Of a DNA stretch of 35,094 nucleotides, positions 9,093 through 16,633 are shown in pieces. Below the pieces are notes generated by a model, which made no database searches, was not told where the DNA came from, and saw only the letters and a list, made by a program, of their open reading frames with translations. The position numbers and the translations under genes were made by a program. Position 1 is the stretch's first letter; each line of letters opens with the position of its first letter. The DNA is from a virus (lineage: Duplodnaviria; Heunggongvirae; Uroviricota; Caudoviricetes): IMG/VR virus record IMGVR_UViG_2541047854_000004; one strand, given 5' to 3'.

Positions 9093-9124
9093 GGGACGAT
9101 CATGAGCAAACCAGTAATGATTGA
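8933..9124 (+). CDS. Small phage protein, paralogue of the 1765-2043 product (DUF4222-like)
   Basis: TTG start with AAGGAGA RBS 7 nt upstream; product ...[35 protein letters not shown]... shares a motif with the 1765-2043 protein; stop overlaps the next ATG. Confidence 0.55.
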
Positions 9125-9959
9125 TTCTGATAATTCTGGGCGTTATATTGTTCTGGCAGCGGCAAAATCCGTTGCCGGGATTGGCGTCCTGAAATTGATT
9201 ACTGAGCATAACCGCGCTCATGCGGTTTTTTCGTGTCATGAGCATTGCTACGCCCAAATTATGGTGGGGCGTACAGGGCCGACTTCGGTCGGGCCGGGTT
9301 CGGTAGTCTCCGGTAACGCCAACCCTGTACGTCTCACCACCTCTGTGATTGGCGTCCCATGTGGTGAGTTTTCTAAAAAACTGACTACCGGGGCTGTCAC
9401 TATGACTACTCTCCCAACCCTCTCTCAACCTGAAATTGCCATCGTTGATGGTCAGGCTGTTACATCTTCTTTGGCTGTTGCTGACTTCTTCTCTAAACGT
9501 CATGACGATGTTCTGAAAAAGATTCGCATTTTGGATTGTTCTCCAGAGTTTTGTGCCCGCAATTTTGCGGAGACATCAATTTTGGTACGCCAGCCCAACG
9601 GCGGTACTCGCAAACTACCTTGCTATCAAATAACCCGCGATGGCTTTGCGTTTCTTGCTATGGGTTTCACGGGTAAACGTGCTGCCCAGTTCAAAGAGGC
9701 ATACATCAATGCCTTTAACCAGATGGAACAGGCGCTGATCGGAAAGGTTGATACTTCATGTGTCGCGCACAATGCCCACGTTGTTTACCTCTACATGGCT
9801 GAAATTCACCGCGTTTGGTTAGAACAACTTTATCCGATGCTGGTTTCAGTTCAGTCTCCGCTGGCTTCATCGCTCTACGACTACATCAACGATGGTGTAT
9901 TCGTTGCCGGGCTGGTGGACTCGGAACTGAACGAAAAGCATAAGGAGGTGCGTAAGTGA
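9102..9959 (+). CDS. Rha / ORF6N-type phage regulatory protein (antirepressor-like)
   Basis: C-terminal ~185 aa carry the Rha-like motif (IVDGQAVTSSLAVADFFSKRHDDVLKKIRIL...YQITRDGFAFLAMGF). The first ~100 codons (9102-9401) are of doubtful coding quality; an alternative start is the ATG at 9402. Confidence 0.5.
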   Translation: MSKPVMIDSDNSGRYIVLAAAKSVAGIGVLKLITEHNRAHAVFSCHEHCYAQIMVGRTGPTSVGPGSVVSGNANPVRLTTSVIGVPCGEFSKKLTTGAVTMTTLPTLSQPEIAIVDGQAVTSSLAVADFFSKRHDDVLKKIRILDCSPEFCARNFAETSILVRQPNGGTRKLPCYQITRDGFAFLAMGFTGKRAAQFKEAYINAFNQMEQALIGKVDTSCVAHNAHVVYLYMAEIHRVWLEQLYPMLVSVQSPLASSLYDYINDGVFVAGLVDSELNEKHKEVRK

Positions 9960-10897
9960 GCACCAAATTAACCGGCTATGTATGGGATGGTTGCGCAGCG
10001 TCAGGCATGAAATTATCCAGTGTGGCAATTATGGCCCGTCTGGCTGATTTCAGTAATGACGAGGGTGTGTGCTGGCCATCAATTGAAACCATTGCCCGCC
10101 AGATTGGCGCGGGGATGAGTACCGTCAGAACGGCTATCGCACGGCTGGAAGCAGAAGGCTGGTTAACGCGTAAGGCGCGTCGCCAGGGTAACCGCAATGC
10201 GTCGAATGTTTATCAGCTTAACGTTGCGAAGCTTCAGGCTGCGGCATTTTCTCAACTGTCAGATTCTGACCCGTCAAAATCTGACGCATCAAAATCTGAC
10301 CCGTCAAAATTTGATGCGTCGAAATCTGGCAAAAAAGCGTGTTTTCACCCGTCAGAATCTGGCGGGGATCCGTCAGTAAAATCAAAACATGATCCGTCAG
10401 ATAAAAAACCTTCTCGTCCGGACGCTTTGCAACCGGACACGCAGACGGCTGAACAGGATTTTTTAACTCGCCATCCTGATGCGGTTGTATTCAGCCCTAA
10501 AAAGCGCCAGTGGGGAACGCAGGATGATTTGACCTGCGCACAGTGGCTCTGGAAAAAAATCATCGCCCTGTACGAGCAGGCCGCCGAATGTGACGGCGAG
10601 GTGGTTCGTCCCAAAGAACCGAACTGGACAGCATGGGCAAACGAAATTCGCCTGATGTGTGTGCAGGATGGTCGTACTCACAAACAAATCTGCGAGATGT
10701 ACAGCCGCGTCAGCCGTGATCCGTTCTGGTGCCGTAACGTGCTCAGCCCGTCGAAGTTGCGGGAAAAATGGGATGAGCTTTCCCTGCGCTTATCGCCGTC
10801 CGTCAGCACGCACACAGAAAAACGTGAAGACCCGTACTTCAAAGCCAGTTACGACAACGTGGACTACAGCCAGATCCCGGAAGGATTCAGGGGGTGA
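9956..10897 (+). CDS. Replication initiator (N-terminal winged-HTH; internal origin iterons)
   Basis: GTG start with AAGGAGGTG RBS; N-terminal HTH (PSIETIARQIGAGMSTVRTAIARLEAEGWL); iteron array inside the linker-coding region, as in lambda O. Confidence 0.7.
   Translation: MSTKLTGYVWDGCAASGMKLSSVAIMARLADFSNDEGVCWPSIETIARQIGAGMSTVRTAIARLEAEGWLTRKARRQGNRNASNVYQLNVAKLQAAAFSQLSDSDPSKSDASKSDPSKFDASKSGKKACFHPSESGGDPSVKSKHDPSDKKPSRPDALQPDTQTAEQDFLTRHPDAVVFSPKKRQWGTQDDLTCAQWLWKKIIALYEQAAECDGEVVRPKEPNWTAWANEIRLMCVQDGRTHKQICEMYSRVSRDPFWCRNVLSPSKLREKWDELSLRLSPSVSTHTEKREDPYFKASYDNVDYSQIPEGFRG
10265..10400. repeat. Iteron array, putative phage origin of replication
   Basis: 15-bp units TCTGACCCGTCAAAA / TCTGACGCATCAAAA / TCTGACCCGTCAAAA / TTTGATGCGTCGAAA (10265-10324); further CCGTCAG cores at 10349, 10370 and 10394; then an A-rich stretch. 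Encodes the SDPSK/SDASK peptide repeats. Confidence 0.6.
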
Positions 10898-11388
10898 TCA
10901 TGAGTCTTTTGAATGAAGTTCAGAAATTCATTGAAGCCCATCCGGGCTGTACTTCCGGAGACATTGCGGATGCTTTTGCAGGTTACTCACGGCAGCGCGT
11001 ACTGCAGTCAGCAAGCAAGTTACGTCAGAGTGGGCGTGTGGCTCACCGTTGTGAAGGGAAAACACGCAGACATTTCCCACACCAGGCTGAGATATCGCAG
11101 GAGGAGAAACTGCAACCTGTTCTTGAAACCATACCTGTGAGCAATTTCTATGTCGGCACTAACGACCCCTGGGTGATTTTGTGCCTGACCCGTCATGCTG
11201 AAGAACTGGAGTCCAGGGGCTTATACCGTCGTGCTGCAACGGTGTGGATGGCGGCATTCCGTGAAAGCCACTCCCAGCCAGAACGAAACAATTTTCTGGC
11301 GCGTCGTGAGCAGTGCTTACAGAAAAGCAGCAAGCGCGCAGCATCGGGTGAAGAGTGGTATCTGTCAGGGAATTACGTGGGGGCTTAA
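10894..11388 (+). CDS. PerC/ANR-like transcriptional regulator with N-terminal winged-helix extension
   Basis: C-terminal motif LESRGLYRRAATVWMAAFRESHSQPERNNFLARREQCL resembles the PerC/Pch family signature (from memory). Start is GTG 10894 (overlapping the upstream stop) or ATG 10900. Confidence 0.5.
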   Translation: MIMSLLNEVQKFIEAHPGCTSGDIADAFAGYSRQRVLQSASKLRQSGRVAHRCEGKTRRHFPHQAEISQEEKLQPVLETIPVSNFYVGTNDPWVILCLTRHAEELESRGLYRRAATVWMAAFRESHSQPERNNFLARREQCLQKSSKRAASGEEWYLSGNYVGA

Positions 11389-13257: not shown

Positions 13258-14253
13258 GTGACCGTGAGAGCACTACTGACCCCTGAAATTGCCCCGCGTA
13301 TGGGGATCGTATTGTTCAGACCAGGTTCAGAGCTGATGCCCCTGTTTATGCAGGGGCGTGTCCTGCTGGAGCCTGAGCCGGAACGTTATTCATCTTTCGC
13401 CAGTGGTGCCGTTCCGGCGGCATCACAACCGCTGGCGGATGATCCTGCCGTTCGGGCCGTGTTCCGCAATGAGGCAGTGATCCGTCGTGCTGGTGGCGTG
13501 GAATGTCTTGAAAGCTGGTTACTTCGTGAAAAAGGCTGCCAGTGGCCTCATTCCGACTGGCACAGCGAGAACATGACCACAATGCGACACGCTCCGGGTG
13601 CAATCCGTCTGTGCTGGCACTGCGATAATCAGCTGCGCGATCAGTTCACGGAACGGCTGGAATCAATGGCAACGGATAACTGTGCCCGCTGGGTGTTGTC
13701 TGTTGTGCGTCGGGATCTCGGTTTTGATGACAGTCACGTTGTGACAATGCCGGAACTGTGCTGGTGGCTGATTCGTAATGATCTGGCGGATGCCTTACCG
13801 GAAAGTGCAGCCCGTAAGGCACTGAGATTACCGAAGCCTGTTGTGCCGACTGTTACCCGGGAAAGTGACCTTGTGCCTTCGGTTCCTGCCACCAGCATCA
13901 TCCGGGATAAGGCGAAAAAGGTGCTGGCGCTGAAAGTGGATCCGGAGTCGCCGGAGTCTTTTATGTTACGCCCAAAACGTCGCCGCTGGGTTAATGAAAA
14001 GTACACGCGCTGGGTTAAGACACAGCCGTGTGCATGTTGTGGAAAGCCCGCTGATGATCCCCACCACCTGATAGGTCACGGTCAGGGTGGAATGGGAACA
14101 AAAGCGCATGACCTTTTTGTGTTGCCTTTGTGCAGAAAGCATCACGACGAGCTGCATGCGGATACCGTGGCATTTGAAGAGAAGTATGGTTCCCAACTGG
14201 AGCTGATATTTCGTTTTATCGATCGCGCGCTGGCGATTGGTGTGCTGTCCTGA
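13258..14253 (+). CDS. DUF968-like protein with C-terminal Cys/His cluster (putative nuclease)
   Basis: C-terminus CACCGKPADDPHHLIGHGQGGMGTKAHDLFVLPLCRKHHDELH; probable start is the GTG at 13264 (GAGG 6 nt upstream). Family name from memory. Confidence 0.65.
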   Translation: MTVRALLTPEIAPRMGIVLFRPGSELMPLFMQGRVLLEPEPERYSSFASGAVPAASQPLADDPAVRAVFRNEAVIRRAGGVECLESWLLREKGCQWPHSDWHSENMTTMRHAPGAIRLCWHCDNQLRDQFTERLESMATDNCARWVLSVVRRDLGFDDSHVVTMPELCWWLIRNDLADALPESAARKALRLPKPVVPTVTRESDLVPSVPATSIIRDKAKKVLALKVDPESPESFMLRPKRRRWVNEKYTRWVKTQPCACCGKPADDPHHLIGHGQGGMGTKAHDLFVLPLCRKHHDELHADTVAFEEKYGSQLELIFRFIDRALAIGVLS

Positions 14254-14270
14254 TTTTGTGGAGAAAGTTG

Positions 14271-14651
14271 ATGCGTGATATTCAGATGGTTCTTGAACGC
14301 TGGGGGGCATGGGCGGCAAGTGGTAACACCGGGGTGGACTATTCTCCGATCGCTGCCGGATTCAAAGGACTTTTACCATCTGCCACTAAACCACGTCCGG
14401 CCTGCTGCGATGATGACGGACTTATCATTGAAAACTGTCTTGCTCGTCTGAAGCAGAAAAAACCTGAGGAGTATTCGCTTCTCATTGCTCATTATTTGTT
14501 GCGAATATCAAAAAGACAGATAGCCAGGACGAGAAAGAAAAGCGAAAAAGCAATACGAATTGAGATGCAGATAGCCGAAGGGTTTATTGACGGATGTTTG
14601 TCTGTGCTGGGGGTAAGACTGGAGATGGACGACTGGCTGCTAAAAAAGTAA
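14271..14651 (+). CDS. Q: Late-gene antiterminator Q (phage-82/Qin-type)
   Basis: N-terminus MRDIQMVLERWGAWAA... matches the Phage_antitermQ family as I recall it; GGAG RBS 7 nt upstream; followed by a short leader and intrinsic terminator. Confidence 0.7.
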   Translation: MRDIQMVLERWGAWAASGNTGVDYSPIAAGFKGLLPSATKPRPACCDDDGLIIENCLARLKQKKPEEYSLLIAHYLLRISKRQIARTRKKSEKAIRIEMQIAEGFIDGCLSVLGVRLEMDDWLLKK

Positions 14652-14720
14652 AAAATGATTAGTGCGGTCCGCAAAAAGTATGTCAGTATGTTAAGAGTGG
14701 TTACTTCGCCACACAACTTA

Positions 14721-14744
14721 AACCCGCCACTGAGCGGGTTTTTT
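14721..14744 (+). terminator. Rho-independent terminator after Q (tR'-like)
   Basis: Stem AACCCGC / GCGGGTT, loop CACTGA, then T6; about 70 nt after the Q stop, leaving room for a late promoter. Confidence 0.65.
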
Positions 14745-14868
14745 GTACCTGTAAACTTGGTGCAGTACAGTAAACACGCTGGTGGTCGTGAATACTGGCT
14801 TTTTATCTTGCTGGCTTTTTAGACAAGAGTTATTGGTATGTCACGTTAACCGGAAAGGGTAAAAAGAC

Positions 14869-15138
14869 ATGCTGAAACAGCAGGATATGACAGAAACCGC
14901 CAGAGTTGTGTTTGATGAATTAAGCGTTACCGAACCGGCGACAGTCGGGGAGATTGCGCAGAATACTTACCTTTCACGCGAACGCTGCCAGTTAATACTG
15001 ACCCAGCTTGTTATGGCGGGTCTGGCAGACTATCAGTGCGGTTGTTACAGACGCCTTCAGTCCTTAAGGCTTTTTATTTGTGGTGAATGGGCGGCTGGTG
15101 GGGGGGCGACACCTGTCAGTCCTTTGCTTATGTGTTGA
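14869..15138 (+). CDS. Small hypothetical protein, possible winged-HTH
   Basis: 89-aa ORF with AAGGG RBS; N-terminal half protein-like (TVGEIAQNTYLSRERCQLILTQLVMAGL), C-terminal third low quality; AT-rich. Confidence 0.35.
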   Translation: MLKQQDMTETARVVFDELSVTEPATVGEIAQNTYLSRERCQLILTQLVMAGLADYQCGCYRRLQSLRLFICGEWAAGGGATPVSPLLMC

Positions 15139-15165
15139 TGATAATTTACCTTTTAGGGCTATAAT
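15135..15165 (+). promoter_or_regulatory. Candidate sigma-70 promoter for the AraC-family gene
   Basis: -35 TTGATG (15135-15140), 19-bp spacer (longer than optimal), perfect -10 TATAAT (15160-15165), about 35 nt before the ATG at 15201. Confidence 0.35.
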
Positions 15166-15200
15166 TGAGCTAACCAATTGCTAATGAAAGTAAAATTATA

Positions 15201-15914
15201 ATGGCTGTTGTCTGTTCAGTTATCATGGTTTGCTCCCCAATTAATATTTTTCTTGAAAAGGATACGTTGTCACTTAAGCCAGGCTCAGTTGTTCTGGCCA
15301 CCAAATGCATCAGGGAGCTTTTCCTTATGCATTATGGCAAAGTTAAAATTGTCGATATAAGCGAATCCGTCGTAAGTCAATATCTGGAAAGTCAGCATAA
15401 GCTGACGAGGACTCGTCTGACTGACATTCCGCTTTACCTGTTGCTGGAACCCAACAATCCTGCGTTGGCTGCGGCTTTAATTACCAGCCAGGGATTTTCC
15501 GGAGAGGCCACGGATATGTTTCTTATGATGGCCTGCCTGTCTCTGTTTGAAACAGATGAACGGATGTCATTGTTTTTAAGTGGATGTTTATCCAGCATAA
15601 GTGCCAAAGTCAGGGCGATAATTCAGACAGATATATCAGCAAGCTGGACGCTTGGTGCGATTGCTCTACAGTTGCATATGAGTGAGAGTTTGTTAAAGAC
15701 AAAACTGAAAAATGAAGGGGGCATGTTCAGTCGCTTGTTGCTGGAAGAGCGGATGCGTGTTGCTGTAAATATGTTATGTTCCCGGCATGGATATGGACAG
15801 GCTATAGCAGAAAAATGCGGTTATTCAAGCAGGTCCTACTTTATTTCTGTATTTCACCGCTATTATGGCTTCCCGCCAGACAGATATGTATCCAGGCAAG
15901 GGCTTGATTATTGA
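15201..15914 (+). CDS. AraC/XylS-family transcriptional regulator (AppY-like moron)
   Basis: C-terminal dual-HTH signature (WTLGAIALQLHMSESLLKTKLK...GYGQAIAEKCGYSSRSYFISVFHRYYGFPPDRY); N-terminus MAVVCSVIMVC resembles prophage-encoded AppY as I recall it; AT-rich. Confidence 0.8.
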   Translation: MAVVCSVIMVCSPINIFLEKDTLSLKPGSVVLATKCIRELFLMHYGKVKIVDISESVVSQYLESQHKLTRTRLTDIPLYLLLEPNNPALAAALITSQGFSGEATDMFLMMACLSLFETDERMSLFLSGCLSSISAKVRAIIQTDISASWTLGAIALQLHMSESLLKTKLKNEGGMFSRLLLEERMRVAVNMLCSRHGYGQAIAEKCGYSSRSYFISVFHRYYGFPPDRYVSRQGLDY

Positions 15915-15942
15915 TTTTCATCTGATTATTATTTTTTGGCTC

Positions 15943-16018
15943 GGCCCTTTAGCTCAGTGGTGAGAGCGAGCGACTCATAATCGCCAGGTCGCTGGTTCAA
16001 ATCCAGCAAGGGCCACCA
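15943..16018 (+). tRNA. tRNA with CAU anticodon (Met, or Ile if lysidine-modified)
   Basis: 7-bp acceptor stem GGCCCTT/AAGGGCC, D-arm AGCTCAGTGG, anticodon loop CTCATAA, T-loop GGTTCAAATCC, encoded CCA. Position matches the ileZ-argN-argO trio of Stx-type lambdoid phages (from memory). Confidence 0.85.
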
Positions 16019-16025
16019 TCACATA

Positions 16026-16099
16026 CCGCCATTAGCTCATCAGGAAAGAGCGCCAGCCTTCGAAGCTGGTTGCGCGGAGTTCGGGTCCCCGAAGGCGGT
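16026..16099 (+). tRNA. tRNA-Arg(UCG)-like, possibly degenerate
   Basis: Anticodon loop CTTCGAA, but the acceptor stem has an A-A mismatch, the T-loop is TTCGGGT (non-canonical position 58) and no CCA is encoded. Confidence 0.55.
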
Positions 16100-16115
16100 T
16101 CATTATCTGTATCCT

Positions 16116-16192
16116 GCGTTGTTAGCTCAGCCGGACAGAGCAATTGCCTTCTAAGCAATCGGTCACTGGTTCGAATCCAGTACAACGCGCCA
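16116..16192 (+). tRNA. tRNA-Arg(UCU)
   Basis: Acceptor stem GCGTTGT/ACAACGC, anticodon loop CTTCTAA, T-loop GGTTCGAATCC, discriminator G and encoded CCA. Confidence 0.85.
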
Positions 16193-16207
16193 GACTTATT
16201 TTTCCCA

Positions 16208-16232
16208 GCTCGCTTTTGCGGGCCTTTTTTTT
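16208..16232 (+). terminator. Intrinsic terminator after the tRNA cluster
   Basis: Stem GCTCGC/GCGGGC (one G-U pair), TTTT loop, then T8. Confidence 0.5.
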
Positions 16233-16432
16233 AAATGTCTCACAATTCAGACGGTTGACAGTTGTCTGTTTTGCGGGGAGTTTGTTAAAAGAAACTGGCA
16301 TGGTGAATCCCCCTGTGCGGAGGGGCAATCAGCGAGTAGGTATATGGGATAATCGCGGATTCAGGTGCTGGTACTGAATTCACCGGGAGGCACCCGGCAC
16401 CATGCAGTTGACTGAAACCATGTATACTCTCA

Positions 16433-16462
16433 GGCCCCACGCACATGTGTTGGGGCCTTTTT
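16433..16462 (+). terminator. Intrinsic terminator upstream of the lysis cassette
   Basis: Stem GGCCCCA/TGGGGCC, 11-nt loop, then T5; a second hairpin preceded by A8 (16470-16496) follows immediately. Confidence 0.55.
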
Positions 16463-16633
16463 ACATGCAAAAAAAAGCCCGCATATGGATACGGGCGGCA
16501 AGGAACAAAAAACGTGAAGTGATCTATTCAGCCAGTGGATAATACCCTGACGTTACCATATTGCGCAATCGCGCATTCTTTCTTTTTCGCTCCCCTTATA
16601 ACTACGCCATCCGTTCGCTGCGGAGGTGAGGCT

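Follow-up and report, generated by a model that had tools for sequence, protein, structure and literature searches.

A psrB-type AraC/XylS regulator gene as exchangeable late-region cargo of a P27-like prophage, with a candidate promoter of its own

The gene at positions 15201-15914 of the window, by which we mean the whole 35,094-nucleotide stretch of DNA that was analysed, is very probably an allele of psrB, a prophage regulator of the AraC/XylS family and the GadW/YdeO/AppY/PatE subfamily, which would be expressed in the lysogen from its own promoter and would activate acid-fitness promoters of the host. The regulator belongs to a known, experimentally characterised gene family and occupies the typical location, and our additions are modest, namely the exact boundaries of the cassette that carries the gene and a -10 element conserved in position across the Psr/PatE clade. 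Gene identity and purifying selection are, like these two additions, direct results of the analysis. With the conserved -10 element, the expression of these regulators from repressed prophages becomes open to direct experiment, and a correct psrB label would aid the prediction of acid tolerance in non-O157 strains, the value of the assignment being otherwise mostly one of annotation.

The window holds an apparently complete lambdoid, P27-like prophage adjoining yecE. Besides replication and lysis genes it has genes for an integrase, for Cro and a LexA-type repressor, for Q and for a regulator of the PerC family; its terminase is of the P27 type, its head of the HK97 type and its tail of the lambda type. 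In the region of interest the window shares 99.9% identity with E. coli SY033, which was isolated from human faeces. No T3SS effector gene was found within the window, whose end is the tail-fibre region, the place taken by the effector loci in Sp9 and Sp11. The features around the regulator gene, and the PerC-family gene of the same prophage, are located as follows.

10894-11388, annotated PerC-family regulator
14256-14651, plus strand, Q antiterminator gene at the start of the late-operon leader
14720-14744, plus strand, intrinsic terminator with an 8-bp stem (AAACCCGC/GCGGGUUU) followed by a U-tract (-20.1 kcal/mol, z = -3.0)
14869-15138, plus strand, backbone ORF of 89 aa for a small winged-helix ("TrmB family") protein like L23 of P27; the usual form has 65 aa (14869-15063)
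15053-15080, plus strand, hairpin terminator where the 65-aa ORF ends, weakened in the window, from the terminator scan
15135-15165, plus strand, candidate promoter with a -10 hexamer TATAAT at 15160-15165 and a predicted start at about 15172
15138-15938, plus strand, exchangeable cargo cassette (the moron proper), made of a 63-bp leader, the psrB-type gene and a 24-bp tail
15201-15914, plus strand, psrB-type AraC/XylS regulator gene, 237 aa, assigned from Pfam and allele identity (exact protein WP_000301785.1)
15943-16192, plus strand, tRNA cluster ileZ-argN-argO, i.e. tRNA-Ile2(CAT), tRNA-Arg(TCG) and tRNA-Arg(TCT), from ARAGORN and the Rfam tRNA model
16208-16232, plus strand, terminator-like site downstream of argO, the first to follow the psr gene (GCTCGCTTTTGCGGGC followed by T8)

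The gene order is therefore Q, a tR'-type terminator, the 65-aa winged-HTH ORF, the cargo with promoter and psrB, ileZ-argN-argO and the lysis genes, and the regulator lies between Q with its terminator and the tRNAs, where an earlier note made from the sequence had placed it. The Q gene matched PF06530 (Phage_antitermQ, E = 1.6e-52) and phrog_79 and is labelled "antiterminator Q family protein" in RefSeq; the hairpin at 14720-14744 is likely to be the tR'-type terminator downstream of it. The pR' promoter was not located, as the terminator and promoter scan returned no promoter-like site between Q and this terminator. Rfam detected no known RNA in 14652-15200; a minus-strand match to STnc130 (14712-14834) scored 28 bits against a threshold of 55 (E = 0.12) and was taken as a chance hit.

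The 237-aa ORF was as the earlier note had described it, and the product scored above the Pfam gathering cut-offs for both HTH_AraC (50.3 bits vs 26.6) and HTH_18 (39.8 vs 33.6). [quoted passage not shown] Sequence matches in the PDB were GadX, Rns, CsvR and ToxT. The AlphaFold model had a mean pLDDT of 71, and its C-terminal domain (pLDDT 73-95) superposed on the DNA-binding domain of GadX (3MKL) with a TM score of 0.85 and an rmsd of 2.0 A. The N-terminal domain, where a regulatory or dimerisation domain of the Rns/ToxT/GadX type would lie, was modelled with a confidence (pLDDT 37-75) too low for judging a ligand pocket; full-length Foldseek comparison with Rns, CsvR and ToxT gave TM scores of only about 0.38 with this low-confidence N-terminal model. 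The sequence alignment with YdeO, GadW and AppY begins at residue 1, and the window protein shares with all three an N-terminal M-x-V-x-C-S-V motif, whose conservation favours the ATG at 15201 as the start codon; the 195-aa form of older annotations appears the less likely product. RefSeq labels the regulator a "helix-turn-helix domain-containing protein" and PHROGs places it in a family of "unknown function".

Comparison with seven alleles returned dN/dS values of 0.21-0.41 at divergences up to dS 1.35, and the regulator gene is therefore under purifying selection. The recognition helices of the HTH motifs were invariant across the Psr family, with the exception of position 211. The exact protein occurs on at least 1000 contigs, and among 5426 complete E. 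coli genomes, 725 (about 13%) covered a 1.3-kb query (14650-15950) over at least 80% of its length.

The window protein was 98.7% identical (234 of 237 residues) to EDL933_RS10010, the equivalent of Sakai ECs_2191 in Sp11; the differing positions are A103V, H196Y and I202V, none of which falls in an invariant column. Against Sakai ECs_1087 (Sp4), read in its long frame, identity was 90.7% over all 237 residues. ECs_2191 and ECs_1087 were also 90.7% identical to each other, so that the two O157 paralogues stand 9.3% apart, and the reviews give PsrB (Z2104, OI-57) as 90% identical to PsrA (Z1789, OI-50) (PMC10877973, PMC8565820). A primer pair specific for Z2104 has been published with a reported amplicon of 158 bp (PMC4763077). 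These primers matched the window and ECs_2191 without mismatch, giving a 158-bp amplicon, and had one mismatch to ECs_1087. EDL933_RS10010 lies at 1,905,274-1,905,987 of re-sequenced EDL933, about 13 kb off the old Z2104 coordinate, in a prophage standing in tandem after another, and these tandem prophages presumably correspond to the composite OI-57. On the strength of the 98.7% identity, the primers, the proximity in coordinates and the paralogue distance, the window gene was therefore assigned as a psrB allele; psrB itself would correspond to ECs_2191, judging from the primers, the 90% distance between the paralogues and the genomic position.

No AraC gene was present at the OI-50/CP-933N position of re-sequenced EDL933 or in Sakai Sp6. 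Since mapping of Z1789 by position gave no such gene, psrA was equated with ecs1087 following the statement of the Tree laboratory in a 2026 paper (PMC13502914). The Sakai prophages Sp9 and Sp10 were found to lack psr; Sp3, Sp5, Sp8, Sp12, Sp14, Sp15 and Sp17 lay outside the search and may hold further copies. All related psr loci examined are phage late regions and the window itself is a prophage, in agreement with the exclusively prophage location of Psr regulators. Psr genes are also characterised by an association with T3SS effector loci and with Pch (PerC-family) regulators; of these, the window shows the annotated PerC-family gene.

The limits of the cargo were defined by comparison with phiP27, whose homology covers 14689-15137, breaks off and restarts at 15939, so that the cargo consists of 15138-15938 only. 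P27, Sakai Sp4 and the Stx2k phage all share the module 14689-15137, which includes the 14720-14744 terminator, and the module also occurs in phages without the AraC gene. The small ORF belongs to this shared stretch and is therefore backbone: it gave tblastn matches in 57 phage records, including phiP27 (L23), SfV (orf47) and many Stx2 phages, and matched phrog_331 (E = 8e-39), the Pfam TrmB match being weak and below the cut-off (E = 0.0055). The earlier note had taken the small ORF and the regulator gene as one inserted unit; the ORF exists, with 89 codons, but the P27 comparison rules out the common insertion. Alignment with 65-aa versions showed that a stop-loss change of TGA to TTA has lengthened it from 65 to 89 aa, and the loss of the stop codon accounts for the pseudogene flag in RefSeq. 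The same base change weakened the hairpin at the end of the ORF. In the window this hairpin has 5 bp and -6.2 kcal/mol, no better than shuffled sequences, while the TGA-containing version at locus L006 has 7 bp and -11.7 kcal/mol (z = -2.35).

The same slot is filled differently in related phages, and the description as a regulatory moron downstream of Q was thus borne out. A DNA methyltransferase replaces the psr cassette in P27 and Sakai Sp9, and some divergent loci carry a methylase and an AraC gene together. As expected of a moron, the gene is missing from the same leader in P27, Sakai Sp9 and Sp10, and the composition of the cassette differs from that of the window (41.6% vs 50.4% GC). 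The gene has 43.9% GC and the leader at 15138-15200 has 25%, and "AT-rich", the term applied earlier, is accurate only in a moderate sense. A terminator of its own, a further hallmark of morons, was lacking, there being no terminator-like site between the stop codon at 15914 and ileZ at 15943.

The tRNA gene ileZ starts 28 nt past the stop codon of the regulator, and the psr-tRNA arrangement is repeated in Sakai Sp4, the Stx2k phage and the loci L006 and L007. Downstream of alleles with at least 77% identity, ileZ-argN-argO (ileZ-argO in Sp11) begins within 26-28 nt, and behind more divergent alleles tRNAs do not occur consistently. A Q gene lies just upstream of each allele examined in the identity range of 98% to 39%, and these Q genes belong to three families (PF06530, DUF1133 and PF03589).

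The candidate promoter lies just upstream of the gene, and its -10 hexamer is located inside the cassette, 41 nt before the ATG. Two -35 hexamers are available, TTGATG at 15135-15140 with a 19-bp spacer, which is the pair the earlier note had pointed out, and ATGATA at 15138-15143 with a 16-bp spacer, preferred by the scan tool. The elements are there as proposed, but in this sequence alone they do not rise above chance: TATAAT occurs 8 times in the window against 10.3 expected, so that a lone hexamer is at chance level, and 3 promoter-like sites were observed in 14200-16600 against 3.5 expected. The case for a promoter belonging to the gene came from comparison of ten alleles, taken from the window, from Sp4 and from the Stx2k phage, together with six at protein identities of 77, 64, 63, 59, 56 and 39% and probable PatE. 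In all ten, TATAAT or TATACT starts 39-42 nt before the ATG. Four lineages with the hexamer show only random-level identity to the window upstream of the gene (25-33%, ungapped). Shuffled sequences placed the hexamer within such a 4-nt interval in 4-7% of cases per sequence, corresponding to a joint chance of about 7e-6 for these four lineages; the value of about 1e-9 obtained by treating seven lineages as independent overstates the independence of the closer ones. The -35 element is weak and not conserved across alleles, probable PatE and the 39% allele having TTGGCA (18-bp spacing) and TTGGTA (17-bp spacing), respectively. A real promoter is supported by the fact that the -10 position is kept even where the upstream DNA is unrelated, which suggests that the candidate may be functional and travel with the gene. 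Its position in the cassette, beyond two terminators, would fit expression independent of the late operon. In having C at -13 the window hexamer presumably resembles the -10 elements preferred by sigma-S, and so does the TATACT found in many alleles. Expression of patE has been described as higher in stationary phase, with RpoS named as an activator (PMC10877973).

The main alternative is that psr is a late gene only, devoid of a functional promoter of its own and transcribed like stx by Q-antiterminated read-through from pR', in the service of the phage. The gene is in fact co-oriented with and downstream of Q in every allele, takes up the part of the leader in which P27 and the Stx2k phage carry stx, and is not separated from the tRNAs by a terminator of its own, and the weak -35 and the chance frequency of promoter-like sites in the region point the same way. 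Against this, the -10 element keeps its position even where the rest of the upstream DNA is unrelated between alleles, and the two upstream terminators make a separate promoter sensible. Moreover, phenotypes of psrA deletion and changes in psrA mRNA have been published in uninduced EHEC (PMC10877973, PMC13502914, PMC8565820), and an intact psr ORF has been kept in Sakai Sp4 and Sp11 despite pseudogenised or IS-disrupted genes there. Exclusive late expression is therefore improbable, and read-through may well occur on top of transcription from the gene's own promoter.

From the conserved -10 element and the published phenotypes of uninduced EHEC we infer that the promoter is active and that psrB is expressed in the lysogen. 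Transcription would begin at the predicted start, about 15172, yielding a leader of about 29 nt, and transcription from upstream would be blocked by the two terminators that precede the psrB promoter. The protein would bind AT-rich sites via its two HTH motifs and activate the promoters of gadE and hdeA in the acid-fitness island of the host. The outcome would be stronger glutamate-dependent acid resistance and, where the host carries a LEE, less type III secretion, through GadE/YhiF. Upon induction, the gene order suggests, psrB and the tRNAs would also be reached by read-through of Q-modified RNA polymerase. The host targets are proposed for the window protein by analogy with published work on PsrA and PsrB, as covered in reviews: binding of PsrB to the hdeA and gadE promoters has been described, as has better acid survival through PsrB, and deletion of psrA raises type III secretion in uninduced cells (PMC10877973, PMC8565820).

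This direct binding, together with the GadE/YhiF-dependent effects described in the same reviews (PMC10877973, PMC8565820), also bears on the possibility that the main targets of the regulator are phage functions, for instance the neighbouring tRNAs, the lysis genes or immunity, and not host acid resistance. That it stands where the late region begins and may be co-transcribed with ileZ-argN-argO would suit such a role; nevertheless, related phages do without the gene and its nearest chromosomal relatives, GadW, YdeO and GadX, are regulators of acid resistance, which makes control of the phage highly improbable as its main function. That psr is silent, decaying cargo without current function is hardly credible, as the stop codon lost by the adjacent small ORF and the frequent silencing of AT-rich foreign DNA by H-NS are outweighed by an intact ORF, purifying selection and the wide occurrence of the exact protein.

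A bolder form of the preferred reading, expression of psrB from its own promoter in the lysogen, can be offered tentatively. The regulator gene is rich in rare codons (5 ATA and 6 AGR), and a lysogen-expressed psrB-ileZ-argN-argO unit might couple such a regulator to the tRNAs by which its rare codons are read, with the -10 element acting as a sigma-S-type stationary-phase signal shared across the Psr/PatE clade and with the protein serving, in a possibly LEE-negative commensal host, purely as a booster of acid resistance. We regard this combination as doubtful.

Among known systems, the earlier note had named the AppY, PatE and Psr types. Psr proved correct; "AppY-like" is loose and right at the level of the subfamily only. 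In the comparisons it had proposed, GadX showed 41% identity in the DNA-binding domain only, probable PatE 37% and AppY 28.6%, while PsrB was the closest protein. GadW (35%), YdeO (31%) and AppY align with the window protein from residue 1 and share its subfamily and architecture; pairwise identities of 28.6-35% to GadW, YdeO and AppY, together with scores below the NCBIfam equivalog cut-offs, rule out a class assignment as an AppY, YdeO or GadX orthologue, and for AppY the 28.6% identity is decisive. The best NCBIfam model, YdeO, reached 108.5 bits against a cut-off of 348, and GadX 87 against 500, both missing by a wide margin; no AppY model was among the NCBIfam families listed. In DLP12 the gene for AppY is found at the far end, whereas the window gene follows Q.

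Probable PatE (Z0321, OI-8; probably Sakai ECs_0287, Sp1) is a prophage-borne, full-length homologue that aligns from residue 1 and has TATACT at -39; it sits at the end of a degraded prophage, in contrast to the position of the window gene after Q. PatE has been published as an activator of gadE and hdeA (PMC10877973). Gene 36 of phiSTEC1575-Stx2k (91.6% identity) occupies the same slot and is followed by the same three tRNAs. After these tRNAs phiSTEC1575-Stx2k carries stx2k, whereas the window has no toxin genes after the regulator and tRNAs; the corresponding region of the window has a STnc100-type sRNA match.

PsrA (Z1789; ECs_1087, Sp4) has the same length as the window protein and its gene likewise lies directly 5' of ileZ-argN-argO, the flanking DNA of Sp4 being 91.6% identical to the window over 14689-16574. 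The two proteins differ by 22 substitutions, including Q157R, T167I, G174H and R211W in the DNA-binding domain. PsrB (Z2104, EDL933 OI-57; Sakai Sp11) comes closest. Its prophage differs from that of the window, which is P27-like, apparently intact, located beside yecE and represented in a human faecal isolate, and the window has argN between ileZ and argO where Sp11 has ileZ-argO only. Both prophages nevertheless carry a PerC-family regulator and share the order Q, 65-aa ORF, psr and ileZ, and the leader of O157:H7 psrB is identical to that of the window, including the TATAAT at -41.

The module at 14689-15137, which contains a tR'-type terminator and a 65-aa ORF, is kept downstream of Q genes from three or more unrelated families, as seen when the window was compared with the loci L004, L002, L005, L006 and L008. 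The 65-aa ORF always starts about 217-226 bp past Q where no extra gene lies between the two. Only about 37 nt between Q and the module (14652-14688) are Q-specific, and a Q-binding/pR' element would have to sit there. At 15053-15070 (+), just upstream of the candidate psr promoter, a single TGA to TTA change removes the stop codon of this conserved ORF and weakens a terminator hairpin. The change could increase read-through into psrB, the gene of the AraC/XylS regulator, in the lineage of the window.

The psrB coding region (15201-15911, +) contains many rare codons, with ATA used for 5 of its 15 isoleucines and AGA/AGG for 6 of its 13 arginines. By their anticodons, the tRNAs located directly 3' of the gene should decode ATA and AGA. 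Further features noted along the window are as follows:

9156-9232, + strand, isrK match (Rfam, 68.6 bits)
9257-9344, + strand, C4 antisense RNA match (Rfam, 82.3 bits)
10894-11388, + strand, 164-aa ORF, PerC-family transcriptional regulator (RefSeq annotation)
15904-15932, + strand, TTGATT-17-TATTAT, promoter-like site that overlaps the stop codon of psr (promoter scan)
16269-16468, + strand, full-length STnc100 sRNA match (Rfam, 140 bits against a gathering score of 47)

The promoter-like site falls within the exchangeable psrB cassette, 11 nt upstream of ileZ, and could serve as a tRNA promoter.

The isrK and C4 matches reproduce the c4-ant immunity arrangement of the P1/P7 type. The ORF 9102-9959, which carries the annotation "Rha family phage regulatory protein", overlaps with both matches in its 5' part, so the start of this CDS may be mis-called. 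As for the PerC-family regulator, homologues of PerC in EHEC include the Pch regulators, which have been reported together with Psr on prophages (PMC10877973).

The PsrB paralogue psrA (Z1789) is placed by the literature in OI-50, CP-933N. No AraC gene was found at this position in re-sequenced EDL933 (NZ_CP008957.1, 1625000-1674999) or in Sakai Sp6, and a TerB-like pseudogene follows Q in its place. It may be that near-identical prophages were confounded with one another here in the 2001 assembly.

The STnc100 match follows argO and precedes the holin gene; related phages have stx or the nanS-p esterase in this region. In EDL933, the sRNA EvrS has been reported between z1789 (psrA) and the esterase gene z1793 (PMC11774850), and the STnc100 match of the window is possibly its equivalent.
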